A stretch of 64,000 nt of DNA from Candidatus Woesearchaeota archaeon (GCA_964448605.1 CAYUZV010000001.1:8693-72692), one strand, 5' to 3'. Positions 4,440 through 57,371 are shown, numbered from the stretch's first letter. Notes: generated by a model not told the origin, from the letters alone. Program-made: numbers and translations.

Positions 4440-5696
4440 TTAATTTTTTAGTATATCTCTCAATTTTTTAGAAACTCTTTTTGGATTTTTGTCTTTTGTT
4501 ATTGCTCCTCCAATAGTGATTATGTCTGCATTGTATTCTTGAAGTTTTTTTAATTTTTTTTCATTAATTCCTCCTGCAAGTGCTGTTAAAACTTTTTTTT
4601 CATTGCAGAGTTTTATCATTTTTTTAAGGTTTGAGAATTTGTCTTTTTTCTGAACATCAATTGCAATATGTATGCAAATTATATGAGGAAGATTTTTTAA
4701 TTTGAGTATTTCTTTTAATCTTTTTTCTCTGTCTGATTTTTTTACATCAATTAAATCCACTAATACTTTTTTGTTTTTTTGATTTGCTATTTCAACTGCT
4801 CCTTCAATTGTTTCATCTGCTGAACCTCCTAAAACACTTACAATATCTGCTCCTTCCTTGAATGCTAAATCTGCTTCAAATTTTCCAGTGTCTGCTGTTT
4901 TAATATCTGCCATAATTATCTTTTTATATTTTTGTATTTTTTTTATTATCTTTAATCCATTCTCTTTTATTAGAGGAGTTCCTAATTCAATTATGTCAAT
5001 GTTTTCTGTTGTTTTGTTTATGAGGTTGAGTGCTTTTTTTTCTTGAGCAATATCAACTGCTATTTGGAGAAAACTATTTTTTGGTTTTATGAATGTTTTT
5101 TTAAGTTGTTTGTTGTATCCAACTACAATTAGATTTGGTAATTTAGTGAATAATCCTGAACACCAGTATTTTTCTAATTTGTCCTCTAAATCTTTAGTTT
5201 TTATTTTTTTTGATTTAATCCAGATTTTGTAAAATTCTCCAAAAACTCTGCTTGAATGTTTTATATAAGGTGCTTTTGGTTTTTTTACACTTTTAATCAG
5301 AATTGGATAATCTTTTATATCGTCTATGAATTTTCTTGAATCTGCTAATAGAATTGTTTTTTCTGCCTGATAATCTAATTTTTTTTCTTTTTCAAATGCA
5401 TATCCTCCAAATCCCTTTAAGACATTAAAATTTTTGTCTATTTTATCTGCTCCGTCAAATGAAATATTGGGTTTGTCTTTTTTGGAGATTTTGAGTTTAT
5501 ATTTTTTGCATATTTTTTTTATGTTTTCATTTACTGGAATTATTTTTATTTTGAGATTTTCGAATTTTACTTTTTTTGCTAATTCTTTTATGAAAATTTT
5601 TATTGTGCTTCCTTCTCCAAGTCCAATTGTCATACCGGATTTTACAAAAAACAATGCTTCTTTTGCAACAAGTTTTTTTTCTTTTGTTTTTATCAT
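4440..5696 (-). CDS. Fusion protein: N-terminal ribose-5-phosphate isomerase A-like domain plus C-terminal 3-hexulose-6-phosphate synthase / KGPDC (OMPDC-fold) domain.
   Basis: N-terminus GMTIGLGEGSTI resembles the RpiA GLGTGST motif. C-terminus KIIMADIKTADTG...ADIVSVLGG resembles the HPS/KGPDC family (ADLKTMDAG). 418 aa. Confidence 0.5.
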   Translation of the reverse strand: MIKTKEKKLVAKEALFFVKSGMTIGLGEGSTIKIFIKELAKKVKFENLKIKIIPVNENIKKICKKYKLKISKKDKPNISFDGADKIDKNFNVLKGFGGYAFEKEKKLDYQAEKTILLADSRKFIDDIKDYPILIKSVKKPKAPYIKHSSRVFGEFYKIWIKSKKIKTKDLEDKLEKYWCSGLFTKLPNLIVVGYNKQLKKTFIKPKNSFLQIAVDIAQEKKALNLINKTTENIDIIELGTPLIKENGLKIIKKIQKYKKIIMADIKTADTGKFEADLAFKEGADIVSVLGGSADETIEGAVEIANQKNKKVLVDLIDVKKSDREKRLKEILKLKNLPHIICIHIAIDVQKKDKFSNLKKMIKLCNEKKVLTALAGGINEKKLKKLQEYNADIITIGGAITKDKNPKRVSKKLRDILKN

Positions 5697-5820: not shown

Positions 5821-6681
5821 TTATTTTTTTATTTTTTTTACAATTGCATTTGCGCAGTCAATTTTGCCTGCTTTATTTGGAATTGTGTTTGTTGTGATTA
5901 CTTTTCCTATTTTTTTTAATTTAGATAGGGCTCCTTCTGCGAAAAGTCCGTGCATTCCGATGAAATAGATGTTTCCTTTTGTGAGTTTTGATGCTTCAAT
6001 TAAAGTGTGTCCTGATGAAATTATGTCGTCGATAATAACTATGTTTTTGTTTTTTGTTTTTTTCCCTTTTATTTTTACTTTTCTTGAATTGAATCTTTGT
6101 TTTTTTAGAATTTTATGTTCGGCATTTAATTTTTTTGCAACTGGAATAACCCATTGTTCGCTTTCTATATCAGGACCTACAATTACTGGATTTTTTATTT
6201 TTCTCTTTATGTAATTTGCTGTTTCATCTGCTAATGAAATTCTTACTGCATTTGGAAAAAATTCCTTAAAGCTGTGGAGTCTGTGAAGGTGAGGTTCTAC
6301 AATATAGACTTTATTGAAAATTTTGCAAAGGTTTACTAAAATTCTATTTGCTACTGCTTCTCCTTTTTTGAAACTCATGTCTTGTCTTAGATATGCAAAA
6401 TAAGGTGAGATTAAATTTATTTTTTTTGCACCTAAGGATTTTGCAGTATGTGCTGCGAATAAAAGTTCTATTAATTTGTCATTTATGTCCAGATTTTTAT
6501 CCTTGTAGAAACTTTGAACAAAGAAAACTTTTTTGTTTTTTATTTCTGCATTTATTCGAACTTTTATTTCAGTGTCTGGAAATCTCTCTATAATTGTTTC
6601 TCCATAAGATGCTTTTAGTTTTTTTGCAATCTTTTTTCCAAGATGTTTTCCACCTGAACAAGAAATTATCACCTCTTTCAT
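5821..6681 (-). CDS. prs: Ribose-phosphate pyrophosphokinase (PRPP synthetase).
   Basis: Archaeal Prs-like N-terminus (VIISCSGGKHLGKKIAKKL). PRPP-binding loop IVIIDDIISSGHT. Length 286 aa. Confidence 0.75.
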   Translation of the reverse strand: MKEVIISCSGGKHLGKKIAKKLKASYGETIIERFPDTEIKVRINAEIKNKKVFFVQSFYKDKNLDINDKLIELLFAAHTAKSLGAKKINLISPYFAYLRQDMSFKKGEAVANRILVNLCKIFNKVYIVEPHLHRLHSFKEFFPNAVRISLADETANYIKRKIKNPVIVGPDIESEQWVIPVAKKLNAEHKILKKQRFNSRKVKIKGKKTKNKNIVIIDDIISSGHTLIEASKLTKGNIYFIGMHGLFAEGALSKLKKIGKVITTNTIPNKAGKIDCANAIVKKIKK

Positions 6682-9719: not shown

Positions 9720-9986
9720 ATGGTTAAGGTAAAAAGAGGAATAAATTTTTGGGATGTTCTTGCCTGGATAGTTTTAATTGGGATATTTATTTGGTTGATT
9801 TTGAAGGTTTTTGGGATTATTAATACCCCTGTTCTAATAGAATATGCTCCTTATTTTGGTGCTGTTTATTTGGCTGGTTGGGCTATGCATAAGTTAGAGA
9901 TGGTAAATGAGGATGTTAAAGATTTGAAAAAATTTAGATATGATACTATTACTGAAATTAATAAATTAAAAAGAGGTTTAAAATGA
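9720..9986 (+). CDS. Small membrane protein with two TM helices. Its stop overlaps the RuBisCO start.
   Basis: Hydrophobic helices VLAWIVLIGIFIWLILKVFGII and FGAVYLAGWAM. ATGA overlap with the 9983 start. Confidence 0.35.
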   Translation: MVKVKRGINFWDVLAWIVLIGIFIWLILKVFGIINTPVLIEYAPYFGAVYLAGWAMHKLEMVNEDVKDLKKFRYDTITEINKLKRGLK

Positions 9987-11236
9987 AGGTGTCTGATTTT
10001 ATAGATTTGAAGTATAAACCGAAGTCGTCGGATTTGGTTTGTTTGTTTAGAGTTGAGAGTGCTGGTTTGCCTATGAAGGTGGTGGCTCCTACTATTGCAT
10101 TGGAGTCAAGTGTTGGAACTTGGACAGATGTTCATGAGAAAAAATATGTTAGGCGGTTGGGTGCTAAGGTTTTTTGGATTAGAGGGAATATGGTTAAGAT
10201 TGCTTATCCTAATGAATTATTTGAGAAAGGAAATGCTCCGAATATTCTTTCATCAATTGCTGGCAATATCTTTGGAATGAAGGCTGTTAAGAATCTTAGA
10301 CTCGAAGATGTGAAAATTCCTCCTGAAATATTAAAATCATTTAAAGGTCCTAAGTATGGTGTTGAGGGTGTTCGGAAAATTTTGAAAGTGGGAGACAGGC
10401 CTTTGGTTGGGACAATTGTTAAACCTAAACTTGGTTTAAAGACAAAGGATCATGCTCAGACTGCTTATGATGCTTGGATGGGTGGTTGTGATGTTGTTAA
10501 GGATGATGAGAATTTGGCTAGTCAGAAATTTAATAAATTTGAGAATAGATTGGCTCGGACCTTGGAGAAAGCAAATAAGGCAGAAGAACAGACAGGTGAG
10601 AAAAAAGCTTATTTAGTTAATGTTACTGCAGAGACTTCTGAAATGATTAGGAGGGCTCAATTGGCTGAAGATTTGGGTTGTAAGTATGTTATGATAGATA
10701 TTGTTACTGCTGGTTTTTCGGCTTTGCAGACATTGAGAGATGCTAATTTTAAAATGGCTATTCATGCTCATAGGGCAATGCATGCTGCTTTTACAAGAAA
10801 TGGAAAACATGGAATTAGCATGATGTTTCTTGCTGATATTGCTCGTTTGATTGGTGTTGATCAATTGCATATTGGAACTGTTGTTGGAAAGTTGGAAGGT
10901 AGCTTGGATGAGGTTAGTGAGATAAATGAGGAGATGGAGAAGAAAGTTGTTAAAGGGACTAAAAGACGACTTGCTCAGAATTGGGGGAAGATTAAACCTG
11001 TTTTGTCGGTTTCTTCAGGAGGTTTGCATCCAGGGCATGTTCCTTTTTTAATGAAGCATTTAGGTCGTGATGTTGTTTTGCAGTTTGGAGGTGGAATTCA
11101 TGGACATCCAAATGGGACTTTAAGAGGAGCTATTGCAGCTCGTCAGGCAGTTGATGCTGTAATGCGAGGTATTTCACTTAAGGAGTTTTCTAAAAATCAT
11201 GTTGAATTGAAAGATGCTTTGGAGTTATGGGGTTAG
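9983..11236 (+). CDS. rbcL: Ribulose-1,5-bisphosphate carboxylase/oxygenase, form III (archaeal type, nucleotide-salvage RuBisCO).
   Basis: Motifs TIVKPKLGL (site of carbamylated Lys), GGCDVVKDDENL, MAIHAHRAMHAAF and SGGLHPGH, all characteristic RuBisCO large-subunit motifs. 417 aa fits form II/III. Confidence 0.85.
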   Translation: MKVSDFIDLKYKPKSSDLVCLFRVESAGLPMKVVAPTIALESSVGTWTDVHEKKYVRRLGAKVFWIRGNMVKIAYPNELFEKGNAPNILSSIAGNIFGMKAVKNLRLEDVKIPPEILKSFKGPKYGVEGVRKILKVGDRPLVGTIVKPKLGLKTKDHAQTAYDAWMGGCDVVKDDENLASQKFNKFENRLARTLEKANKAEEQTGEKKAYLVNVTAETSEMIRRAQLAEDLGCKYVMIDIVTAGFSALQTLRDANFKMAIHAHRAMHAAFTRNGKHGISMMFLADIARLIGVDQLHIGTVVGKLEGSLDEVSEINEEMEKKVVKGTKRRLAQNWGKIKPVLSVSSGGLHPGHVPFLMKHLGRDVVLQFGGGIHGHPNGTLRGAIAARQAVDAVMRGISLKEFSKNHVELKDALELWG

Positions 11237-16437: not shown

Positions 16438-17056
16438 GAGTTGTTGTAGAGGGTGAGGAGAGATAATATGATTGATGACATAAATAGAATTTTTTGAAGA
16501 TTGGTTCTCAGGAGATGAAATAGATTTTAGTGAGGAGGTAGAATATTATCTTGAGAAATTTTTGTATTATTCTGTAAATCAAGATGAAAGAAGTAAAAGG
16601 AATCTGATAATAGTTTTAAGGAACATCAAAGGTTAATATATTTTGATGAATTAATGAAATTTATGATTAGATGCCAGGAAGATATTGATGGGATGTGTTT
16701 AGGACATTAATCGACATATTCTCATTATATATAAACCTTCCTAAATCTTTTTAAAAGAAAATTTTTTGTGTGGATTTTTATGAGTTTATAAATCTTTAGA
16801 AATGTTTTAAAAAGAAAGTTTATTATGTTTTTATTTAAAATGGAGGTGAATAAATTGGAGTGACCGATTCATGGGGAGCCGTTGTTTCCCAATGATTATG
16901 ACAAGACGATTGGATATTGCAAAAGATGCAAGGTCTGGTATGAGTTTGAAGATTTGCAGAAAGAGAAAGAAGAGTGATGTTTATTTTATTTCACATAAGT
17001 TTATTAATATTGTTTTCTTTTAATTTTATTGAAATTATTTATTATGGGATTTTAAG

Positions 17057-17506
17057 ATGCCACACCAATGTACAAAATGCGGAGAAATGTATCCTGATGC
17101 ATCTGAAGAGTTGTTAAAGGGTTGTAAATGTGGGAGCAGGTTTTTTTATTATATTAGGCAGGATAAATATGATTCATTACGGGAAGAGTATAAGAAAAAG
17201 ATTGTTGAATTGGAAAAGGCAGATAAAGAGCAGATTGAAAAAGATATTCGTGAGTTGACTGGTTTAGATAAAAAACCTGATAAGCCAGTTGTTTTAGATT
17301 TGGAGAGTGTGAGAGTTTTGGAGCCGGGTAAATTTGAAATTGATTTGATTAATTTGTTTGCGAAATCAAGACCTTTGATTTACAAATTAGAGGAAGGAAA
17401 GTATGTTATTGATTTGGAGAATTCTTTTAAGAAAGGAGAGATTTATGAGAGGGATTATTTTGAAGAAGAGGAGAATTCAGAAGAGGGTGATTTTGAAAAA
17501 ACTTAA
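17057..17506 (+). CDS. Zn-ribbon-containing protein (DUF2072-like) with an acidic C-terminus.
   Basis: N-terminus CTKCGEMYPD...CKCGSRFFYY (CxxC...CxC ribbon). Immediately upstream of the SMC-like gene. Confidence 0.4.
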   Translation: MPHQCTKCGEMYPDASEELLKGCKCGSRFFYYIRQDKYDSLREEYKKKIVELEKADKEQIEKDIRELTGLDKKPDKPVVLDLESVRVLEPGKFEIDLINLFAKSRPLIYKLEEGKYVIDLENSFKKGEIYERDYFEEEENSEEGDFEKT

Positions 17507-17568
17507 ATTTGAACAAACTTAAAAACCCTAATTGCTTTTGTTAGTATTATAAATTTATTGAGGTTAAT

Positions 17569-20433
17569 ATGACATATATAAAAAAATTAGGTATGAAAGG
17601 GTTTAAGAGTTTTGCAAGAGAGACTCCAATTTATTTTGACAGGCATGTTGTTTGCATTGTTGGTCCTAATGGTTCTGGAAAGTCGAATGTTCTTGATGCA
17701 CTTTGTTTTGTTTTAGGAAGATTGTCGATAAAGTCGATTCGAGCTTCAAAAGCTTCGCATTTAATTTTTTCAGGAAACAAACATTATAAACCTGCGAATC
17801 AGGCATATGTTGAAATTGTTTTTGATAATTCTGATAAAACTTTTGCATTGGATAATGATGAAATTGCGATTCGGAGAATTGTTAAAAAAAATGGACAGGG
17901 AGTTTATAAAATAAATGGACAGGTAAAAACAAGGCAGGAGGTTTTGGAGTTGTTGGGGCAGGCAGGAATTGACCCTTATGGTTTTAATATTGTTTTGCAA
18001 GGTGAGATTGAAAAATTTGTTAAGATGCCTGCTGAAGAAAGAAGAAAAGTTATTGAAGAAGTTTCTGGAATTTCTATTTATGAAATGAGAAAAGAAAAGT
18101 CTATGAAAGAATTGGATAAAACAAATGAAAAACTTAAACAAATAAATTCAGTTTTGAGAGAGAGGGCGAATTATATTAGAAATCTTGAGAAGGAGAGAGA
18201 GCAGGCATTAAGATATAAAAAACTTCAGGGTTCTATTAAGAGATATAAGGCATCAATTATTCAGAGAAATATTTTAGACAGGGAAAAAGAGCTTAAGGAA
18301 ATTTTGAAAAATATGGAGGGCAAGAATTCTGATGTGAATAAAAAAGATGAGATTATTATTAAATTCAGGAGAGATATTGGGAATTTGAATAAAAGTGTGG
18401 AAGATATTTCCAAAGAGGTTCAGCAGAAATCTGGTTTTGAGCAGGATTCTCTTTTGAATGAAATTTCTGAAATAAAACAAGACATTGCTGGATTAGGTGC
18501 GAGGAAAGAGAATTATGAGAATAATCTTGTTGAATTAGATAGAAGGAAAGAGAGGTTGAATGTTGATATAAAAAATCTTAATGAGGAGATTGATAGAATG
18601 AGTAAGGAGAAGGGTAGAAATGTTAAAAGGGAATTGGAGGTTAAGAAAAATAAACTTGATGAGTTGGAAGAGACGAAAAGGCAGTATTATCTTATAAGGT
18701 CAAATTTGTCTTCTGTGAATAATCAGATTTCAGATAAGATGAGGCAGATTGCAAAATTAAATAATGAGAGTGATTTTATTTTGAATTCAATTGAGAATCT
18801 TGAAGATGAAATTAAAATAAGGGATGGTTTGGAGGAGCATGAAAAGAAAATTGAGAATTTGAATAAGAAGTTAAAGGTTAGTGAGAAAAAGATTGAAGAG
18901 ATGGAGGAGAGTTTGATGGTTAAGGAAAGAGAGTGTGCTATTAATGGAAGATTGATTGAGGATTCTGAAAAAATTAAGAGCCAGATTTCTGAACTTGATG
19001 TTTGTCCTTTGTGCAAGACAAAAGTTACTAAAGAGCATATTAAAGATGTTATTAGAAAAGTTGATGGAGATATTTCTGGTGCTCGGGAAGTTATTGAGAA
19101 TAATGAAAAAGAAATTAAAAAGATGAATTTTGAAATTGAGAAATTGAAGGAATTTATTGAGAAGGGAAATGAGGAAGTTAAAATTCGAGAGATTTGTATT
19201 GTGAAGATAAGAAATATTCGTGAGAAAAAAGATAGTTTGAGGAGAAATAATGAAGAGATGAAGGCGATTAAGAGCGAGTTGAAGGTTCTTGAAGATAAAA
19301 AGAGAATGTATGAGAATAAAGTTTCTTCAATAAAAATAAGTGAAGAGATGTATGAAAATTTGAAGTTGGAAGTTAGCGAACTGCAGAGGAGTGAGGAAAA
19401 AAATCTTGGAATTGAGATTGCGACAAAACAGAGAGAGGTTGACAGGGCTCGTTTAGCAATAAAGCAAATTGTTCGGGACAGAGAAGAGTTAGTTGAAGAA
19501 TTGAAAGATATAAATGAAAGTTTAGAGGAAAAGGAAAGTGTTGTTGAGGAAAAAGAAGAGCAGGCAGAGATTTTAAAGAAAAAGTATCAGAAAATGTTTG
19601 AAGAGAAAAATAAATTGCAGGACAGGGTTAGGAGTATTGAAAGTGATTTGATGAAAGTTCAGAATGAAAAGAGATTGCTTGAAAATGATATTAATAATTT
19701 GAAGATTTCTTGTGCACAGATTAATGCTAAGATTGATTCTTTGAAAGAGGAGATTGAGGAATTTGGGAAATTTGAATTTTTGAATTTGAATATTGATAAA
19801 CTGAAAGAGAAATTGAGAAATGCAGAGGTTATTTTGGAAAGGATTGGAAGTGTTAATATGAAGGCCTTGGAAGTTTATGAAGGTGTTAAAGAAGAGTATG
19901 ATAAAATTCGGGCGAAGGTTGAACAACTTGATAAAGAGAAAGAGGAGATTTTGAAAGTTATTGAACAGATTGACAGGAAAAAGAGGAGGACTTTTATGAG
20001 GACTCTGAAAGGTGTTAATGAATTGTTTTCAAGGAATTTTTCTCAATTAAGTGATAAGGGAGTTGTTAATCTTGAGGTTCAGGATAAAAAAGAGATTTTT
20101 AATGCAGGGCTTGATATTGTGATTAAAGTTGGTGCTGGAAAATATTTTGATATTACTTCATTGTCAGGAGGTGAGCAGACTCTTGTTGCTTTGTCTTTGA
20201 TTTTTGCAATTCAGGAACATCGTCCTTATAGTTTTTATGTTTTTGATGAAATTGATGCTGCTTTGGATAAAAGGAATAGTCAGAGATTAGCTTATCTTTT
20301 GAAAAAGCATATGAAAGAAGGGCAGTATTTGATTATAACTCATAATGATTCTATTATTTCAGAATCTTCTAATGTTCTTTATGGAGTTAGTATGCAGGAA
20401 GGTATTTCTAAGGTTTTGAGTTTGGAGGTTTGA
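17569..20433 (+). CDS. SMC-family ATPase with a Rad50-like CxxC zinc-hook in place of a hinge.
   Basis: N-terminal Walker A head (KGFKSF...IVGPNGSGKSNVLDALCFVLG). C-terminal signature and Walker B (LSGGEQTLVALSLIFAIQEHRPYSFYVFDEIDAALD). About 700 aa of coiled coil. The mid-coil motif DVCPLCKTKV at roughly nt 19000 replaces a Gly-rich SMC hinge. Confidence 0.8.
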   Translation: MTYIKKLGMKGFKSFARETPIYFDRHVVCIVGPNGSGKSNVLDALCFVLGRLSIKSIRASKASHLIFSGNKHYKPANQAYVEIVFDNSDKTFALDNDEIAIRRIVKKNGQGVYKINGQVKTRQEVLELLGQAGIDPYGFNIVLQGEIEKFVKMPAEERRKVIEEVSGISIYEMRKEKSMKELDKTNEKLKQINSVLRERANYIRNLEKEREQALRYKKLQGSIKRYKASIIQRNILDREKELKEILKNMEGKNSDVNKKDEIIIKFRRDIGNLNKSVEDISKEVQQKSGFEQDSLLNEISEIKQDIAGLGARKENYENNLVELDRRKERLNVDIKNLNEEIDRMSKEKGRNVKRELEVKKNKLDELEETKRQYYLIRSNLSSVNNQISDKMRQIAKLNNESDFILNSIENLEDEIKIRDGLEEHEKKIENLNKKLKVSEKKIEEMEESLMVKERECAINGRLIEDSEKIKSQISELDVCPLCKTKVTKEHIKDVIRKVDGDISGAREVIENNEKEIKKMNFEIEKLKEFIEKGNEEVKIREICIVKIRNIREKKDSLRRNNEEMKAIKSELKVLEDKKRMYENKVSSIKISEEMYENLKLEVSELQRSEEKNLGIEIATKQREVDRARLAIKQIVRDREELVEELKDINESLEEKESVVEEKEEQAEILKKKYQKMFEEKNKLQDRVRSIESDLMKVQNEKRLLENDINNLKISCAQINAKIDSLKEEIEEFGKFEFLNLNIDKLKEKLRNAEVILERIGSVNMKALEVYEGVKEEYDKIRAKVEQLDKEKEEILKVIEQIDRKKRRTFMRTLKGVNELFSRNFSQLSDKGVVNLEVQDKKEIFNAGLDIVIKVGAGKYFDITSLSGGEQTLVALSLIFAIQEHRPYSFYVFDEIDAALDKRNSQRLAYLLKKHMKEGQYLIITHNDSIISESSNVLYGVSMQEGISKVLSLEV

Positions 20434-20674: not shown

Positions 20675-21016
20675 ATGTTTATAAGTGCACAATGTGTCTA
20701 TTTTGTATACAAAATGACTGAATTAATATCTACAAGGGCTCCTAAGGAAGTAATAGAAGAAGTTGATAGATTTGCTAAAGAAAAAGGGTTGGGAAGGACA
20801 GTCTTAGTGAAAATTTTACTTACAAAGGGTCTTGAAAAATTCAAGATTGAATATGCTATTGAAAAATACAGAAAGGGAGAAGTATCTCTTTGGAAAGGAG
20901 CTGATTTAGCAGGAGTTTCTTTATGGGTTTTTATGGATGAGGTTAAAAATAAAAAAATATCTCATTACACATTAGAAGATGCTAAGGAAGATATAAAACA
21001 GGTTTTTGGTAAATGA
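20675..21016 (+). CDS. UPF0175-family antitoxin-like protein.
   Basis: Small protein about 110 aa. Overlaps the downstream PIN-like gene by 4 nt. The UPF0175/DUF3368 pairing is a known TA architecture. Confidence 0.5.
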   Translation: MFISAQCVYFVYKMTELISTRAPKEVIEEVDRFAKEKGLGRTVLVKILLTKGLEKFKIEYAIEKYRKGEVSLWKGADLAGVSLWVFMDEVKNKKISHYTLEDAKEDIKQVFGK

Positions 21017-21525
21017 TATCAGTATGTAATTCGAGTCCATTAATTTATTTAGTAAAACTGAATAAACTAAATTTGCTTAAAAAAATTTATGAGAAAGTTT
21101 TTATTCCTGAAGAGGTTTTTGAGGAAGTTGTTTTAGAAGGAAAAAGATTGAATCAAAAAGAAGTTTTATTAATTGAAAAAGAAATAGGAGAAGGTTTTAT
21201 TGTTGTTAAAAAATCTGGAAGAGTTAAGAAACTAAGGGATTTGTCTCATTTGCATAAGGGTGAGATTTGTGCTATTTCTCTTTGTCTGAATTTTAATGAA
21301 AAAAATATTTTAATTGATGATAAAGAGGCTTATAAGATATGTCAACTTCTTGATTTGAATCCTGTTCGGACGAGTGCTATTTTTATTAGATTTTTTAAGG
21401 AAAAATTAATAGGTTTTGAAGAATATAAAAAATTGCTTATAGATTTGAGTAATGAAGGATATTATATTGATATTGAGACTTTTAATTATCTTTTGAATGA
21501 AGCGAGTAGATATGAGAAGGTTTAA
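21013..21525 (+). CDS. DUF3368-type PIN-domain toxin-like nuclease.
   Basis: N-terminus ISVCNSSPLIYLVKLNKLNLL is typical of DUF3368 PIN-like proteins. An acidic residue lies near the N-terminus. 170 aa. Confidence 0.5.
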   Translation: MISVCNSSPLIYLVKLNKLNLLKKIYEKVFIPEEVFEEVVLEGKRLNQKEVLLIEKEIGEGFIVVKKSGRVKKLRDLSHLHKGEICAISLCLNFNEKNILIDDKEAYKICQLLDLNPVRTSAIFIRFFKEKLIGFEEYKKLLIDLSNEGYYIDIETFNYLLNEASRYEKV

Positions 21526-24246: not shown

Positions 24247-24897
24247 TTGTTTTATATGGTTTTTAAAGTATTGACAAATTTTACAAAGAGGATGTTTAAT
24301 TCGCTTTTTAGTCAGAGGAAAGAGATTTCATTAGGTTTTTATGGTCCTCCAAATGGGGGTAAAACTACTTTAGCTAATCGTATTTGTAAGGATTGGACTG
24401 GTGAGGAGATTGGTAAAGTTAGTAAAATGGCACATGAGACAAGGAAAGTTCAGTTTAAGGAAGAAGTTGAAATTAAGTATAAGGAAAAATCTCTGAAATT
24501 TAAACTTGTGGATACTCCTGGAATTGCTACGAAAATTGATTATGAGGATTTTATGAAGTTTAAGATGAAGAAAAAGCAGGCACAGAAAAGGGCTAAGGAG
24601 GCGACACAAGGAATTGTTGAATCAATTAAATGGCTTGATGATATGGATGCTGTTATTGTTGTTGTAGATGCTACTGAGAATCCTTATTCGCAAGTTAATA
24701 TTACCATGGTTGGCAATTTGGTTGCTCGGAAGATTCCTGTGCTTGTTGTTGCAAATAAGATAGATTTAAGAAAGGCGGATATTAAAAAAATTGAATCTGC
24801 TTTTCCTGATTATGATGTGATTGGAATTTCAGCTAAATATGGAAAAAACATGGACGAGTTTTATGAGTCTGTATTTAAGTTAGCTAAAAAAGTTTAA
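24247..24897 (+). CDS. Small GTP-binding protein (P-loop GTPase).
   Basis: G1 GPPNGGKTT, G3 DTPG, G4 NKIDL. True start may be a downstream Met near 24292. Confidence 0.6.
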   Translation: MFYMVFKVLTNFTKRMFNSLFSQRKEISLGFYGPPNGGKTTLANRICKDWTGEEIGKVSKMAHETRKVQFKEEVEIKYKEKSLKFKLVDTPGIATKIDYEDFMKFKMKKKQAQKRAKEATQGIVESIKWLDDMDAVIVVVDATENPYSQVNITMVGNLVARKIPVLVVANKIDLRKADIKKIESAFPDYDVIGISAKYGKNMDEFYESVFKLAKKV

Positions 24898-47318: not shown

Positions 47319-47427
47319 AAGGACTACAAAGTGTTACACTGGTTAGAAATTAGTTATAAAATAATAACGAAAAAATCATAATCACTAACACAAAACTTTA
47401 AATCATCAAAAGGACACAGAAATATAT

Positions 47428-47508
47428 GCCGCAGTCGCATAATGGTATTGCACCAGATTGCTAATCTGGACCCTTCGGGGTGCGTAGGTTCGATTCCTGC
47501 CTGCGGCG
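47428..47508 (+). tRNA. tRNA-Ser (anticodon GCU), type II with long variable arm. No encoded CCA.
   Basis: Manually folded. Acceptor GCCGCAG/CTGCGGC. D-arm GCAT-AATGGTA-TTGC. Anticodon stem CCAGA/TCTGG with loop TTGCTAA. Variable arm ACCCTTCGGGGTG. T-arm GTAGG-TTCGATT-CCTGC. Discriminator G. Followed by a T-rich tract. Confidence 0.8.
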
Positions 47509-47567
47509 TTTTTATTTTAAATTCATTAACTTTAAATAATCTATATATTTTTGAATTTAATAAAAAG

Positions 47568-49088
47568 ATGAAACTTAATATTTTAATTGGTGGAAAAGCA
47601 GGACAAGGAATTAATAAGATATCAGAGATTATTTCAAATGTTTTTACTAAAAATGGATATTTTGTTTTTAATTATCGGGATTATCCTTCGTTGATTCGGG
47701 GAGGACATAATTTTAATGTTCTTACGATTTCTGATTCAGAGGTTTTTTCAAATGAGTCTAAATTTGATGCTGTGATTGCTATGGATGAGAATAGTGTTAA
47801 GGTTCACGAAGGTGAGTTGAAAAAGGAGGGTGTTGTTTTTAAGGGAGATGATTATAAGGATTTGGGAAGAGATTTGAATATTGCTCTTGCTTCTGCTTAT
47901 CTTAAGAGTATTGGTATTTCTAAGGAAGTTGTGGTTGAAGAAGTTAAATCTCATTTTGAACATGAGGGTGCTAGAAATGCTGTTGAGGAAGGTTATTCAT
48001 TTGAGGGAGATATTGATGATTGTGGTTTTTGTAAGAGGGATGGTGATATTGTGAAAATGACTGGAAGTGTGGGGATTTCTGAAGGTGCAATTAATTCAGG
48101 TATTGATGTTTATCTTGCTTATCCAATGACTCCTGCAACAGGAGTTTTGCATGATTTAGCGAGTAAGCAGGAGAAACATGGTTTTTTGGTTTTTCAACCT
48201 GAAAATGAGATTGCTGTTGCAAATGCTTCTTTGGGTTGCAGTTTTGCTGGTGCTAAAACAATGGTTGGGAGTTCAGGAGGAGGTTATGATTTGATGACAG
48301 AGGCATTGAGTATGCAGGGGATGGCTGAAATTCCTTTAGTTGTTTATCTTGCTTCAAGACCCGGACCTGGTACAGGTGTTCCAACTTATTCATTACAAGA
48401 TGATTTAGATGTTGCTTTAAGGGGAGGGCATGGAGAATTTCCAAGAGTAGTGATTGCTCCTGGAGACCCTGTTGAATGTATTGAAAATACTAATGAGGCA
48501 TTTTATTTATCTGAGAAATTTGGAGTTTTGAGTATTGTTTTAAGTGATAAACATCTGGCTGAAAGTGAATTTAGTTCTGATAGAGATTTAAAAAAATCTT
48601 TGAAGGTTGAGGTTAAAAGAAAAGTTCCAGGTGAGGGAATTGTTAAGTCAAGCAGTTATGAACACGATAAGAATTGGAACACTATTGAAGATGCTGAAAC
48701 TGCTAAGGAATTTGCTGATAAGAGGGTTGCTCGTTATGGTTTGATTAAGGATGAGTGTAAGAAGTTTGATATGATTAAAATTCATGGGAAAACGGATAGT
48801 AAGAATTTGGTGATTGGTTGGGGTTCTACTAAAGGAGCTATTTTAGATGCTATTCGGGGAGAGGATTTTAAATTTTTGCAGGTTTTATATTTGAAACCTT
48901 TGAGCGATGAGATAAGGAAAGAGATAGAGAGTGCTAATAAGATAATTTTGGTTGAACAAAATGTTACAGGGCAGTTGGGCAGGTTGATTAGAGAGAAAAC
49001 TGGAATTAAGATTGATAAAAGGATTTTGAGATATGATACTCGTCCTTTTAATAGTGATGAGTTAAAGGTGGAGTTATTGAAAATTTAA
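47568..49088 (+). CDS. 2-oxoacid:ferredoxin oxidoreductase, fused gamma-alpha subunit (PorG/PorA-like).
   Basis: N-terminus MKLNILIGGKAGQGINKISEII (gamma-subunit GGxGGQG motif). Alpha-domain motifs AYPMTPATG and GGGYDLM. The ORF-track start at 47442 lies inside the tRNA and is rejected. No beta subunit is adjacent. Confidence 0.7.
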   Translation: MKLNILIGGKAGQGINKISEIISNVFTKNGYFVFNYRDYPSLIRGGHNFNVLTISDSEVFSNESKFDAVIAMDENSVKVHEGELKKEGVVFKGDDYKDLGRDLNIALASAYLKSIGISKEVVVEEVKSHFEHEGARNAVEEGYSFEGDIDDCGFCKRDGDIVKMTGSVGISEGAINSGIDVYLAYPMTPATGVLHDLASKQEKHGFLVFQPENEIAVANASLGCSFAGAKTMVGSSGGGYDLMTEALSMQGMAEIPLVVYLASRPGPGTGVPTYSLQDDLDVALRGGHGEFPRVVIAPGDPVECIENTNEAFYLSEKFGVLSIVLSDKHLAESEFSSDRDLKKSLKVEVKRKVPGEGIVKSSSYEHDKNWNTIEDAETAKEFADKRVARYGLIKDECKKFDMIKIHGKTDSKNLVIGWGSTKGAILDAIRGEDFKFLQVLYLKPLSDEIRKEIESANKIILVEQNVTGQLGRLIREKTGIKIDKRILRYDTRPFNSDELKVELLKI

Positions 49089-53846: not shown

Positions 53847-56800
53847 ATGGAATTTAAAAAAGGGATGAATTCATTTATAGATGATGCTATTAAAAATCTG
53901 AATGAGAGTGCAGAAAATTCAGATGATTTAGATGAATCAAGGGATATTAGTGTTGATGAGTTTTTTAATGATAAAAAGGCAGAACTTTCAGGTTATGCAA
54001 AAACTTCGCCACAACCTGATTTGGTAAAATGGTTTTCAGAAGTTAATAACAAAGATGTTCAGACAGTAGGAGGGAAAGGTGCTTCCCTTGGTGAGATGTA
54101 TAATTCTAAGTTTCCAGTTCCACCTGGTTTTGTTATAACTGCACAAGCTTTTGATTTTTTTATAACTAAAAGTGGGATTAAGGATGATATAAAGAAAATT
54201 ATGGAAAGCATTGATTTGGAAGATACAGGGGATTTGCATGAGGCATCTAAAAAAATTCGGAGTTTAATTGAGAGCAAGGAGATTCCTGAAGAGCTTGAAA
54301 AAGAGATTTTGGAATCTTATAATATTTTGAGCAGTGAGGATATTGATGAGATTGGTGTTTCACAGGATGCTTTGAATATTTTGAAAAATTCGCAGGAGCC
54401 AGTTTTTGTTTCAGTTAGAAGTTCTGCAACAACTGAAGATTTAGCTGATGCAAGTTTTGCAGGACAGCAGGAAAGTTTTTTGAATGTAAAAGGAAATTCT
54501 CAATTGATTGAAAAGGTTCGAAAATGTTTTTCTTCTCTTTATACTCCTCGTGCAATTTATTATAGAGGGAGCAAAGGATTTAAGGAAAGTGAAGCACTTT
54601 TAGCTGTTGTTGTTCAAAAGATGATTGATTCTGAAAAGTCAGGTGTTGTTTTTTCAAGAGACCCTGTTAATCTTGATGATAAGGTTGCTATTGAAGCTGT
54701 TTTTGGTTTAGGTGAGGGAATTGTGGGAGGTAAAATTAAACCAGACCATTATATTGTTTCAAGAGATTTAGAAATAAAAGATATGAAAGTTTTTGATAAG
54801 AAGATTGCTATTGTTCGGACAGGGAGTGGTGAGAATGGAATTGTAAAACTTAGTCCTGAAAAAAGTAAGACTCAGGTTTTGAGTCGTGGTGAATTGAAGG
54901 AGATTGCAGATTATGCAGTCAGATTAGAAGAGCATTATAAAAAACCGCAGGATATTGAATTTGCAGTTGAAAATGGTGAGGTTTATATTTTGCAATCAAG
55001 ACCAATTACAACTCTGAATAAAGAGAGTAAAAAAAGTGAGATTAAAGGCAATGTTATTTTGCAGGGACAGAGTGCGAGTTCAGGTGTTGGTTCTGGTGTT
55101 GTTAAAATAATTGAATCAATGGATGATTTGCCTAAGGTGAAAAAAGGTGATGTTTTGGTTACTGAAATGACCAATCCTGATATGGTTGTGGCTATGCAAA
55201 AATCTTCAGCAATTGTTACAAATGAAGGAGGCATGACTTCGCATGCTGCTATTGTTAGTCGTGAAATGGGCATACCTTGTGTTGTTGGAACTGATAATGC
55301 GACAGAAGTTTTGAAGGAAGGTATGAGAATAACTGTTGAAGGTTCATCTGGAAAGATTTTTGAAGGGCAGGTTGCTGAATCAAAATCTGTTGAAATTAAA
55401 AAAGCTGTTTCAACTGAAAAAATAAAAATAAAAGTTATTGTTGATTTGCCTGAATTTTCTGACAGAGCTGCTGAATCAGGTGTTGAAGCAATTGGACTGA
55501 CTCGTCTTGAAGGAATTATCGCAAGTATGAAAAAACACCCTTTGAAGTATGAGAAAGAAAAAAAATTAGATGATTATACAAAAGTTTTAGAAGAAGGTAT
55601 TGCTAAGATTATTAAAAATTTTAAATCAATGTGGGTTCGTGCTTCGGATATTCGGACTGATGAATATAGTTCATTAGAAGGTGCTCCTGAAAAAGAGATT
55701 AATCCTATGCTTGGTTTTCATGGTATTAGGTTTAGTTTAAAACATCCTGAAATTTTGAAAGCAGAATTACAGGCAATTAGAAATATTGCTGATAAGTTTC
55801 CAGAGAAGAAAATAGGGATTATGTTTCCACAGGTTATTTCAATTGAGGAAGTTAAAGATGTTAAAAAAATCTTTGATGAATTCAGAACAGAGAATATGGA
55901 ATTTGGTGCTATGATTGAGACACCTGCAAGTGTTCAGATAATTGATGATATTTGCAAGGAGGTTGATTTTATTTCTTTTGGAACTAATGATTTGACTCAG
56001 TTTACATTAGGAGTTGATAGGAATAATGAAGATGTTCAGTATTTGTATAATGAGATGCATCCTGCAATTTTTTCACAGATTAAAAAAGTTCTTGATGCTT
56101 GTAGGGAGAATGATGTTGAGTCAAGTATTTGCGGGCAGGCAGGTTCTAAAAAAGAAATGGCTGAATTTTTGTTTAAAGAAGGTATTAAAAGTATTTCTGT
56201 TAATGCTGATGCTGCTCATGATATTTCGATTTTGATTAGTGAATTAGAAGGGAATTGGAAAAAAGGAGAGGATGAAAGATTGGAGAATGAGAGGAAGGTT
56301 AAGGAAGAAGAATTTGAAAAAGAGAGATTAGAAAAAGAAAGGGTTGAAAGAGAGGAGCAGGAAAGACAGGAGAGAGAAAGAATTGAAAAAGAAAATATAG
56401 AAGGAGAAGAAAGAGAGAGACAGGAAAAAGAGAGATTAGAAGCAATTGAGAGAGAAAGGCTGGAGAATGAAAAAAAAGGAGAGATGGAAAAATTTGAAGA
56501 AGAAAGGAAAAAGTTTGAAAAAGAGAAATTAGCATTTGATGAAGAAAAAAAGAAATTTGAAGAGGAGAAGTTAGAAAGGGAGAAATTGAAGAGTGAGGAG
56601 ATTGAAAAAGAAGAGCAGGAAAATGAAGTAAGTGAAGAGGAAAAATTGAAAGCACTTGAAAAAGAAAAAGAGGAAAGTGAAAGATTGGAGAGGAAGAAAG
56701 AGGAGGCAATTGAAAGAGAGAAATCTGAAAGTGGTGAGAGTTCCGGAGAATCTGTTGAAGAAGTTTCTGAATCTTTTGATTCTATAAAAGATTTAAAAAA

Positions 56801-57371
56801 GAAATTATGGAAATTAAAAAAACAAAGAAAATGGAAGGAGTTTAAGGAATTGAAAAAAAAGTTGAAGAAAATGGATAATTGGAATAAAAAAGCAGAGCTT
56901 ACTCCTATGAATGTGGAAGGGCAGAAGGTTGAACCTGTTAAAAAAGATGTTGTTGTGCATAATGAAGTTGCTTCTAAAGAAGTTGTTGAAAAAAGGCCTG
57001 GAGTTGAGGAAAGTGTGGAGCCTGAAGTTCCTCGTCCAGATAATTCTTTTAATGTTGAAAAGAATATTCATAAAGTTGATGATGATAAAAGAATTGATAA
57101 GGAAAGTGAGGAAATTCATCAGAGAGTTGAGAGGGAGAATGATGCTGAAGTGAAGGCAATGGATGAAGGTATTGAAGTTAGTAAAGAAGATTATGCTGAT
57201 GTTCCTATTGAGGAGAGAACTAAGGAGATTGGTGGAGAAGAATCTGAAAAAAATGAGCAAGAAGATTCTGTTGATGAGAAAAAAGTGGAAGAGAATGTAG
57301 GAGTTTATAAGCCTGATTTAGAAGAAAAGAAAGAGAAATTTAATTATAATTTTAGTGATTGGGAGGATTAG
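53847..57371 (+). CDS. ppsA: Phosphoenolpyruvate synthase (pyruvate, water dikinase) with a C-terminal E/K/R-rich low-complexity extension of about 370 aa.
   Basis: PEP/pyruvate-utilising domains with a phosphohistidine motif GGMTSHAAIVSREMGIPCVVG. The N-terminal ATP-grasp nucleotide-binding region is ppsA-like. Homology ends around aa 800 (about nt 56250). Thereafter ERLENERKVKEEEFEKERLEKERVEREEQ... is charged low complexity. Confidence 0.85.
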   Translation: MEFKKGMNSFIDDAIKNLNESAENSDDLDESRDISVDEFFNDKKAELSGYAKTSPQPDLVKWFSEVNNKDVQTVGGKGASLGEMYNSKFPVPPGFVITAQAFDFFITKSGIKDDIKKIMESIDLEDTGDLHEASKKIRSLIESKEIPEELEKEILESYNILSSEDIDEIGVSQDALNILKNSQEPVFVSVRSSATTEDLADASFAGQQESFLNVKGNSQLIEKVRKCFSSLYTPRAIYYRGSKGFKESEALLAVVVQKMIDSEKSGVVFSRDPVNLDDKVAIEAVFGLGEGIVGGKIKPDHYIVSRDLEIKDMKVFDKKIAIVRTGSGENGIVKLSPEKSKTQVLSRGELKEIADYAVRLEEHYKKPQDIEFAVENGEVYILQSRPITTLNKESKKSEIKGNVILQGQSASSGVGSGVVKIIESMDDLPKVKKGDVLVTEMTNPDMVVAMQKSSAIVTNEGGMTSHAAIVSREMGIPCVVGTDNATEVLKEGMRITVEGSSGKIFEGQVAESKSVEIKKAVSTEKIKIKVIVDLPEFSDRAAESGVEAIGLTRLEGIIASMKKHPLKYEKEKKLDDYTKVLEEGIAKIIKNFKSMWVRASDIRTDEYSSLEGAPEKEINPMLGFHGIRFSLKHPEILKAELQAIRNIADKFPEKKIGIMFPQVISIEEVKDVKKIFDEFRTENMEFGAMIETPASVQIIDDICKEVDFISFGTNDLTQFTLGVDRNNEDVQYLYNEMHPAIFSQIKKVLDACRENDVESSICGQAGSKKEMAEFLFKEGIKSISVNADAAHDISILISELEGNWKKGEDERLENERKVKEEEFEKERLEKERVEREEQERQERERIEKENIEGEERERQEKERLEAIERERLENEKKGEMEKFEEERKKFEKEKLAFDEEKKKFEEEKLEREKLKSEEIEKEEQENEVSEEEKLKALEKEKEESERLERKKEEAIEREKSESGESSGESVEEVSESFDSIKDLKKKLWKLKKQRKWKEFKELKKKLKKMDNWNKKAELTPMNVEGQKVEPVKKDVVVHNEVASKEVVEKRPGVEESVEPEVPRPDNSFNVEKNIHKVDDDKRIDKESEEIHQRVERENDAEVKAMDEGIEVSKEDYADVPIEERTKEIGGEESEKNEQEDSVDEKKVEENVGVYKPDLEEKKEKFNYNFSDWED

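Follow-up and report, generated by a model that had tools for sequence, protein, structure and literature searches.

A hinge-less SMC protein with a Rad50-like zinc hook in DPANN archaea, probably a natural SMC/Rad50 chimera

In a stretch of 64,000 nucleotides (nt) from a Candidatus Woesearchaeota archaeon (GCA_964448605.1, CAYUZV010000001.1:8693-72692; hereafter the window, with positions counted from its first letter), a gene at 17569..20433 on the + strand encodes an SMC-type ATPase of 954 amino acids (aa) that has no hinge and carries a Rad50-like zinc hook at its centre (Pfam SMC_N 1e-49, NCBIfam TIGR02169 1.7e-155, Smc heads in the PDB 1e-103). In chromosome biology few features are as conserved as the SMC hinge, whose function has been debated for two decades. 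We propose, with a probability of roughly 0.75, that the gene encodes the SMC (condensin-type) ATPase of Pacearchaeota/Nanoarchaeota (DPANN), and that it is a natural chimera in which the periphery, i.e. the hinge and the hinge-proximal coil, was replaced by its Rad50 counterpart. The Rad50-derived part would consist of the zinc hook and of ~100-120 coiled-coil residues flanking it on each side, ~250 residues in all.

Results

The coiled-coil apex

Both open reading frames (ORFs) of the initial annotation were recovered on the + strand, one of 149 aa at 17057-17506 and the one of 954 aa at 17569-20433. In the latter, the motif CPLC (aa 479-482, nt 19003-19014) lies within DVCPLCKTKV (aa 477-486, nt 18997-19026), in agreement with the zinc hook that had been placed at about 19000-19017, and residue 479 of 954 marks the exact midpoint of the chain. 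The hook apex as a whole spans aa 471-495 (18979..19053, + strand, like all features of the gene given below).

By a word-indexed search at least 120 clusters at 90% identity were obtained, ~954 aa in length and with 62-69% identity to the query. Among the matches listed, all 120 of these close orthologs have CPLC at the same position, and a hinge annotation was found for none of the 120 clusters. An exhaustive search of 1.84 billion representatives yielded ~20 full-length representatives of 50% clusters (946-1023 aa, 39-67% identity) that are colinear with the query, and every one of them contains a central C-P-x-C. In an alignment of 33 sequences with 37-69% identity, C479, P480 and C482 are the sole invariant residues between G289 and A716, a distance of 427 arm residues, and an apex alignment of 37 sequences shows no indels around CP-x-C. 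The initial annotation had left room for a motif that is not conserved among orthologs; as CP-x-C is invariant in close and divergent members, this objection does not hold. With two invariant cysteines per chain, the family is consistent with an inter-chain Cys4 zinc site.

When a profile of the apex (136 positions) was compared with all PDB sequences, the P. furiosus Rad50 zinc hooks 6ZFF (3.3e-11) and 1L8D (7.4e-11) and the human RAD50 hook 5GOX (5e-5) were retrieved, and the remaining matches were coiled-coil noise with E-values of at least 0.004. The aligned hook motif exceeds the CxxC itself, reading CPLCKTKITKEH in the family and CPVCGRELTDEH in P. furiosus Rad50. The Pfam model Rad50_zn_hook (PF04423) is matched individually by 30 of 37 members (best 3e-7), with a sub-threshold hit at 467-497 in the single sequence of the 954-aa protein. 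NCBIfam Rad50 models recognise the apex in 34/37 members and the ASRP model does so in 29/37. A Foldseek search of 350,542 PDB chains gave 1l8d_A as the top fold match, with a template modelling (TM) score of 0.82 on the target, a root-mean-square deviation of 2.5 A and an E-value of 0.04; Foldseek statistics are weak for helical hairpins. The Rad50-like zinc hook of the initial annotation is well supported by the three PDB hooks together with the 30/37 Pfam matches.

A hinge was searched for by several approaches. Pfam SMC_hinge (PF06470) has no match in the 954-aa protein. A hidden Markov model (HMM) built from Pfam-verified hinges matched 99 of 151 SMC representatives but was negative for all 35 that bear a hook, and a hinge profile of the sister clade scored 0.9 bits on the hook family vs 184 on other SMCs. 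In the full-length AlphaFold2 (AF2) model (mean predicted local distance difference test, pLDDT, 76), the head is followed by one long coiled coil, antiparallel and interrupted by discrete breaks, in which helices 169-475 run outward and 488-827 return, connected by a tight turn at 476-487. A focused model of the apex (pLDDT 94.7, predicted TM score 0.77) consists of two long helices joined by the CPLC loop, and neither model contains a globular domain at the apex. Nor was a hinge fold hidden around the CxxC, the other doubt raised at the outset, detected by sequence profile or AF2 model. As initially described, the protein has no glycine-rich hinge: PF06470, both hinge profiles and the AF2 models are negative, and the chimera is a hinge-less protein.

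SMCs without a recognised hinge were also encountered in bacteria. Saccharibacteria/Patescibacteria (L009, L026, L029, L032, L034 and L046) encode short SMCs of ~760-780 aa and spirochaetes (L006, L007) SMCs of ~960-990 aa; these proteins of the candidate phyla radiation and of spirochaetes show no match to the archaeal-seeded hinge HMM and no CxxC. They may represent further SMCs that are hinge-less or have a highly divergent hinge.

Heads and proximal arms

The N-terminal half of the ATPase head (aa 1-165, 17569..18063) contains the Walker A motif GPNGSGKSN (aa 32-40, 17662-17688), of which G32, N34, G35, G37, K38, S39 and N40 are family-invariant, as is Q144. The C-terminal half (aa 795-954, 19951..20433) contains the signature LSGGEQ (aa 865-870, 20161-20178; invariant S866, G867, G868 and E869), the Walker B/D-loop FYVFDEIDAALD (aa 889-900, 20233-20268; invariant D893, E894 and D896) and the family-invariant H-loop residue H925. 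All catalytic motifs, i.e. Walker A, Q-loop, signature, Walker B, D-loop and H-loop, are divided over the N- and C-terminal parts and do not vary in the family alignments. Of the head motifs reported by the initial annotation, KGFKSF as well as GPNGSGKSN is present in the 954-aa protein, alongside LSGGEQ and FYVFDEIDAALD.

The best PDB sequence match is to Pyrococcus Smc head constructs (1e-103), as compared to ~1e-14 for Rad50 heads. Among the NCBIfam models, TIGR02169 scores 519.5 bits (equivalog cutoff 729.4) and TIGR02168 516.2 bits (cutoff 567.35), and these values stay below their cutoffs because the hinge is missing. The Rad50 models with 108 bits and the ASRP model with 125 bits are four- to five-fold under SMC, the Rad50 equivalogs being far below their own cutoffs. 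The assignment of the heads to the SMC type, also made initially, is therefore upheld by both the PDB and the NCBIfam comparison. The TIGR02169 match (1.7e-155) is split in two stretches that skip the hinge, the first one covering query 3-471 and profile positions 1-466 of 1165. Similarly, a canonical-SMC profile aligns formally to query residues 1-474 and again from 495-549 to 954, skipping profile positions ~477-755; in P0144 only residues 470-494 are left unaligned. Thus, arm length and register are roughly preserved. The N-strand of the arm measures ~307 aa vs ~345 aa in relatives, and the protein is, as noted from the start, shorter than canonical SMC, the difference being ~200 residues. 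Both its sequence and its phylogeny identify the heads and the proximal arms as SMC proper.

Mosaic structure of the protein

The affinity of the individual segments was assessed with hook-family segment profiles against 70 canonical hinge-bearing SMCs, 120 DPANN Rad50s and reversed sequences as composition decoys (values are median best-domain bits). The two head halves (1-165 / 795-954) score 200 / 177 against canonical SMC (decoy -2.3 / -2.7) vs 11 / 16.7 against DPANN Rad50 (decoy -2.4 / -1.5). The same affinity is seen for the proximal arms, which are SMC-derived: the N-strand (aa 170-345, 18076..18603; AF2 helices 169-209 and 217-344) and the C-strand (aa 613-790, 19405..19938) score 76.5 / 69.1 against canonical SMC (decoy 7.6 / 4.2) and 5.0 / 0.7 against DPANN Rad50 (decoy 1.6 / 0.2). 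With a profile of the sister-clade SMCs, the hook family reaches 99 bits for the proximal N-strand and 92.7 bits for the proximal C-strand.

The distal arm with the hook (aa ~353-606, 18625..19386) scores 77.3 against DPANN Rad50 (max 112; decoy 2.8, max 15.5), whereas against canonical SMC it stays at decoy level (8.6, decoy 8.1). The hook-free C-distal segment 496-606 still favours Rad50 with 19.6 (decoy 2.0) over canonical SMC with 9.2 (decoy 6.5), and the N-distal segment (353-470) has 11.9 against Rad50 (decoy 4.1). This Rad50-like distal module is colinear with Rad50 residues ~210-490, and in a BLASTP comparison residues 229-439 of a Rad50 from the same lineage (L159, see below) align to query 350-565 with 32% identity (7e-14).

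The points at which the affinity switches coincide with two breaks of the coiled coil in the AF2 model. The putative outbound junction from SMC to Rad50 falls in the break at aa ~345-352 (18601..18624; non-helical, pLDDT <50 at 347-353), and the putative return junction in the break at aa ~607-612 (19387..19404; non-helical at 608-612, pLDDT <50 at 606-613), which faces the former across the antiparallel coil. Both positions are given as approximate, since sliding windows of 50 aa are too weak inside the coiled coil, where they pick out nothing but the hook and the head-proximal arm, and since distal arms are poorly conserved even among true SMCs, as seen in a positive control. For the latter reason the missing SMC signal in the distal arm was rejected as a proof of replacement. 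When distal scores were matched by proximal score, canonical SMCs had a median of 18 and reached up to 140, as compared to 12.7 with a maximum of 22 in the hook family (p=0.006).

The Rad50 of the lineage

A hook-specific metagenome scan, with the closer hook-SMC set as query, returned 80 loci. In two of them (L152 and L159) the matching gene encodes a protein of ~690 aa with Rad50-type heads and the hook KLDICPLCKQKVTLEHI; the other 78 of 80 carry the SMC-type hook gene. In L152, rad50 overlaps with the Metallophos (Mre11-like) gene upstream of it, and split archaeal rpoB genes are located nearby. The encoded protein belongs to a DPANN Rad50 family (P0280-P0399) of ~685 aa with at least 120 clusters, labelled Nanoarchaeota, Woesearchaeota or Nanoarchaeia and annotated as SbcC/Rad50. 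The mre11-rad50 arrangement recurs in assembly GCA_964432435.1 and in a contig of the Hainich H51 metagenome.

With the same apex profile, the Rad50s of the lineage score up to 76 bits (median 54), ahead of P. furiosus Rad50 (45), human RAD50 (26) and the decoys (at most 11). In terms of identity to the chimera consensus, the best lineage Rad50 shares 23/40 apex residues vs 13/40 for P. furiosus, and the core common to the hooks of the chimera and of the lineage Rad50 reads CPLCK-x-K-[IV]-T-x-EH. Judged by these profile scores and identities, the chimera apex is homologous to Rad50 hooks and closest to those of Rad50 from the same DPANN lineage.

The gene that follows mre11-rad50 in DPANN is conserved, encodes ~475-492 aa and has no Pfam match (L152 11086-12513, L163 12082-13560, L164 2898-4373). 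It stands where HerA/NurA might be expected and may encode an uncharacterised partner. The RpoB' gene of L152 (15387-18380) carries an intein.

Phylogeny and distribution

A neighbour-joining tree of the heads was calculated from 325 head columns of 130 representatives, midpoint-rooted and bootstrapped 100 times. Twenty-one full-length hook proteins together with four short proteins form one split (86/100), and every clade that branches next outside it bears hinges. Within the hook clade, heads are 55-82% identical to the query, as compared to 37-55% for hinge SMCs. SMCs of all domains have hinges; hence, the hook would be the derived state, and it probably arose once, in the ancestor of this Pacearchaeota/Nanoarchaeota group.

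The four short proteins (P0140, P0142, P0143 and P0146; 779-804 aa) group with the hook clade, three of them inside it. They have no counterpart of query residues ~400-590, i.e. neither a hinge nor a CxxC, and their apex is a bare coiled-coil hairpin. A further entry seen in connection with these short SMCs, P0274, is labelled Pacearchaeota.

The orthologs of the hook protein are labelled Candidatus Pacearchaeota or Nanoarchaeota (DPANN), and the copies in the 78 metagenome loci have ~950-965 aa. Upstream of the gene and on the same strand, RNase HII is found in 51 of the 63 loci that have an upstream gene, in 27 of them directly adjacent. A 414-aa gene lies downstream on the opposite strand in 44 of the 80 loci; DUF7557, an AP-endonuclease-2-fold gene, a Toprim gene and EF-1alpha are further conserved neighbours in this set. 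The chimera is a widespread core gene of constant length in a conserved housekeeping synteny. In a genome-contig scan based on the generic head motifs GPNGSGKSN and DEIDAALD, the matches listed were mostly ordinary bacterial or archaeal SMCs, with one hook locus (L003) among them.

Several members deviate in details. Inteins (LAGLIDADG_3 and Intein_splicing) interrupt the P-loop after residue ~36-37 in P0003, P0010, P0090, P0099, P0107, P0126 and P0129 (1474-1489 aa), and the hook-SMC P0069 of locus L086 (1116 aa) contains a shorter mini-intein. One hook-SMC ortholog (P0080) carries the NCBI label 'Dehalococcoidia bacterium'; rather than being bacterial, it most likely stems from an archaeal contig that was mis-binned.

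Genomic context in the window

The window has a G+C content of ~30% and contains the archaeal markers EF-1alpha, an archaeal ThrRS editing domain, L31e, S19e and RuBisCO. As stated initially, the gene is not flanked by mre11/herA/nurA or scpA/scpB: among window ORFs of at least 90 aa no ScpA, ScpB, Mre11, HerA or NurA was detected. In the 80 loci no Metallophos or other nuclease gene is linked to the chimera, and no second SMC or hinge is present in 1.04 Mb of hook-SMC flanks. The 1174-aa ORF at 53847-57371 was considered as a second SMC and rejected, as it encodes a phosphoenolpyruvate (PEP)-utilising enzyme (PPDK_N/PEP-utilizers).

Directly upstream of the chimera gene, the 149-aa Zn-ribbon gene of the initial annotation (17057..17506, + strand) does exist and belongs to the OapC family (PF09845, 3.2e-23). 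As a conserved partner it did not stand up: OapC is adjacent to the hook-SMC gene in none of the 80 other loci, where RNase HII is the usual neighbour, and a functional partnership was rejected since the adjacency is peculiar to this window. The oap genes are split here. Besides oapC, an OapA-type GTPase gene (MMR_HSR1, 24247-24897) and oapB (PF09846, 24922-25341) lie ~4 kb downstream of the SMC gene, and the SMC gene, a toxin-antitoxin pair and a gene for an 882-aa PKD-domain membrane protein are located between oapC and the oapA/oapB-type genes. No Orc1/Cdc6 gene and no GC-skew inflection were seen near the oap genes. Origin-like features upstream of oapC were dismissed, as only an imperfect direct repeat and no GC-skew inflection was found; this repeat (16730-16837; 51 nt, 75% identity, 57-nt spacing) lies in the AT-rich spacer of 620 bp from EF-1alpha to oapC. 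Two Shine-Dalgarno-like repeats of the GTGAGGAG type are found at 16453 and 16530.

The toxin-antitoxin pair is of type II, with a UPF0175 antitoxin-like gene (20675-21016) overlapping a PIN-domain gene (21013-21525). It matches the PADLOC candidate system PDC-S70 (7.5e-25) and is not kept beside the hook-SMC gene in other loci. Elsewhere in the window, a gene for a Form III-type RuBisCO large subunit (9983-11236) is located near a phosphoribosyl pyrophosphate synthetase gene (5821-6681) and a fused ribose-5-phosphate-isomerase-like/OMP (orotidine monophosphate)-decarboxylase-fold gene (4440-5696), and sucrose-phosphatase, invertase and GH32 genes are present. In a reduced genome, this combination looks like a set for the salvage of sugars and nucleotides. 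A tRNA-Ser(GCT) (47427-47509) overlaps the listed start of a pyruvate:ferredoxin oxidoreductase-type ORF (47442-49088), so that the true start of this gene is expected further downstream.

Discussion

Weighing of the explanations

Inter-chain dimerisation through a Cys4 zinc site and a role as the SMC of the lineage are most likely on the evidence above, and other explanations were weighed against this proposal. The initial annotation had suggested, as one of two possibilities, a repair-type ATPase. In this case a Rad50-like ATPase for the repair or tethering of double-strand breaks, with SMC-like heads, would have replaced Mre11-Rad50 in a reduced genome, and the Rad50-type hook and distal coil, the lack of a kleisin gene nearby and the conserved upstream neighbour RNase HII, another DNA-maintenance gene, would all fit. 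A repair role is nevertheless quite unlikely because the lineage retains a separate, conventional mre11-rad50 operon with a hook of its own. In addition, no nuclease gene is linked to the chimera in the 80 loci, and its heads show no Rad50-type features (11-17 bits vs Rad50). The Mre11-binding site of Rad50 is the head-proximal coil, and this region is SMC-derived here. Alternatively, CP-x-C could be a convergent or intramolecular metal or disulfide site, e.g. of the Cys2-His type with the histidine 8 residues downstream, that staples the turn and is neither derived from Rad50 nor dimerising. In favour of such a site, close orthologs all have H490, the Rad50 hook match in Foldseek has a weak E-value (0.04), and monomer-only models leave room for it. 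In divergent members, however, this histidine is changed to Tyr, Glu or Ala while C-P-x-C never varies. The hook of P. furiosus Rad50 is followed by the same T-x-E-H, so the histidine appears to be a feature of Rad50 hooks rather than a new ligand; His490 as an obligatory third metal ligand was rejected on both grounds. Furthermore, homology is favoured over convergence by a Rad50 similarity that runs >100 residues past the motif and peaks with the lineage's own Rad50, and we know of no precedent for an SMC without any apex dimerisation. We therefore consider a convergent or intramolecular site distinctly improbable.

Zinc hooks are also present in ASRPs (PMC9389158), and the protein might be a member of this family (ClsN/Sph1/Sph2), i.e. 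an SMC-superfamily paralog natively equipped with a hook and not an SMC ortholog. NCBIfam ASRP does match it at 2.6e-36, as it matches the apex segments of 29/37 members. Yet the score of 125.4 bits for NF045487 is well under the cutoff of 300, and the match is confined to the coil (aa 298-666), as opposed to 519 bits for the SMC equivalogs and 1e-103 with Pyrococcus Smc for the heads. Colinearity of the proximal arms with canonical SMC (70-99 bits), the position of the heads among hinge-bearing SMCs in the tree and a length of 954 aa vs the ~590 aa of the ASRP model likewise make membership in this family very improbable. Hardly credible is a role in defence against phages or plasmids, as the SMC-like subunit of a system such as Lamassu (LmuB) or Wadjet (JetC), which the adjacent toxin-antitoxin pair brought to mind. 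PADLOC reports mad3 (6.9e-53), LmuB (1.2e-29) and JetC (1.6e-14) for the protein and PDC-S70 for the downstream UPF0175/PIN pair, but with 178, 101 and 51 bits the three former matches are all under the 519 bits of SMC and are expected cross-matches between SMC-superfamily heads. Moreover, no LmuA or JetA/B/D-type partner is present, the toxin-antitoxin pair is not kept beside the gene, and the housekeeping synteny over 80 loci and the constant length across the lineage speak against such a role.

A number of points weigh against the chimeric condensin-type SMC that we favour. Zinc binding and dimerisation are what we infer, with structure predictions that were monomer-only and ligand-free. 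On the apex, ASRP and Rad50 models reach similar scores, so that the donor could conceivably have been of the ASRP type. The Rad50-derived extent beyond the hook rests on modest scores (11.9 vs 4.1 and 19.6 vs 2.0), and the lost SMC signal in the distal arm, being weakly informative (p=0.006), would be supportive rather than decisive. That chimera and Rad50 may occur in one genome, with no second, hinge-bearing SMC there, is suggested by lineage labels and shared metagenomes, no contig with both genes having been found among the Rad50 records looked up, and the head phylogeny is a distance-based neighbour-joining tree of 325 columns with midpoint rooting. Finally, scpA lies directly downstream of smc in 10 of 14 canonical archaeal smc loci, but an ScpA profile (PDB match to 'Segregation and condensation protein A', 6e-15; Asgard ScpA as positive control, 9e-20) finds nothing in the 1.04 Mb of hook-SMC loci or in the window (best E-value 2.7). 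The smc-scpA linkage is lost in hook-SMC loci and, as no kleisin was found near any of the copies examined, a kleisin-dependent mechanism is unproven.

Proposed mechanism

According to the favoured explanation, two chains of the chimera would dimerise by sharing one Zn2+ between two CPLC motifs, giving a Cys4 site as in Rad50, and the zinc-shared apex would be constitutively closed and substitute for the hinge. The ATP-driven SMC heads and the head-proximal arms would work as in Smc(-ScpA), i.e. entrap DNA and translocate or extrude loops, thereby organising a small chromosome. That such an architecture can work is indicated by a B. subtilis Smc engineered to carry the zinc hook of P. furiosus Rad50 instead of its hinge, which is functional and supports growth (Burmann et al. 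2017, PMC5344682). The reverse swap, yeast Rad50 with the MukB hinge, is functional as well (PMC6969161). In Wadjet, loop extrusion does not require the hinge and the coiled coil up to the elbow, which are needed to bypass obstacles tethered by single-stranded DNA (ssDNA) or RNA, and it was proposed in 2025 that hinge and coil up to the elbow form a separable 'periphery' needed only for this bypass (PMC12647877). Natural channel-less hinges tend to come with longer arms (PMC12647877). As the chimera has neither a hinge toroid nor lengthened arms, activities that depend on the hinge, i.e. the 'hinge bypass' of ssDNA/RNA linkers and DNA binding by the hinge, should be absent from it.

The swap itself could go back to a single event, in which smc recombined with the rad50 of its own lineage close to discontinuities of the coiled coil, and vertical inheritance would have followed. 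The near-identical hooks (23/40 apex residues) also raise the thought that the hooks of chimera and lineage Rad50 might pair with each other through a shared zinc, coupling a chromosome-folding SMC to Mre11-Rad50; alternatively, ongoing gene conversion might keep the two genes similar. A related idea is that the hinge-less SMC also does without a kleisin and acts as a Rad50-style two-subunit clamp. We regard this group of ideas as unlikely. If heterotypic pairing of the two hooks did occur, chromosome folding would be physically coupled to a repair machine.

The proposed chimera would provide a natural experiment on the role of the hinge, in that an entire lineage has the SMC periphery swapped for a Rad50 periphery, apparently for a long time and with arms that are not lengthened. 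It would offer biochemistry an evolution-tested hinge-less SMC and leads to a testable prediction, namely that hinge bypass is absent and that this is tolerated in genomes of ~1 Mb. It would also be a concrete case of module exchange between SMC-superfamily paralogs near coiled-coil discontinuities and bear on the diversification of the superfamily. In addition, there is an annotation problem, in that the hook goes unmentioned in the names that databases give to the family, 'chromosome segregation protein SMC' or 'AAA family ATPase'.

Comparison with known systems

A full-text literature search revealed no report of a zinc hook in a natural SMC proper, although a prior mention elsewhere is possible. 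So far, a chimera of this kind appears to have been described only as a laboratory construct. The engineered B. subtilis Smc(Zh) (PMC5344682) has the same design, with SMC heads and arms that are closed by a Rad50 zinc hook. Smc(Zh), however, contains a short hook insert, whereas the archaeal chimera is natural and fixed in its lineage, has ~250 Rad50-like residues and apparently received them from the lineage's own Rad50.

With canonical archaeal Smc-ScpA of Pyrococcus/Thermococcus (TIGR02169), the chimera shares the heads, the ATPase motifs and a colinear proximal coil. It differs from canonical archaeal Smc in that it has no hinge and no adjacent scpA, is ~200 residues shorter and scores below the equivalog cutoff. 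To archaeal Rad50 it is related by the hook C-P-[LV]-C-x-[TQR]-x-[IVL]-T-x-E-H at the apex and by a flanking coil that is colinear with Rad50 ~210-490; in contrast, its heads (11-17 bits) and proximal arms are not those of Rad50, and no mre11 is linked to it. ASRPs (ClsN, Sph1/Sph2; Yoshinaga et al. 2022, PMC9389158) are likewise archaeal SMC-superfamily proteins that dimerise via a zinc hook, but they are separate, shorter proteins (~600 aa) with heads of their own, whereas the heads of the chimera group with SMC proper. Lastly, SMCs with channel-less hinges (Wadjet-II/III JetC, MukB and Acetobacter Smc; Liu et al. 2025, PMC12647877) have also lost the function of the hinge toroid channel in nature. 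These proteins keep the hinge fold and tend to lengthen their arms, whereas in the chimera the hinge is gone, a hook is found in its place and the arms are slightly shorter.

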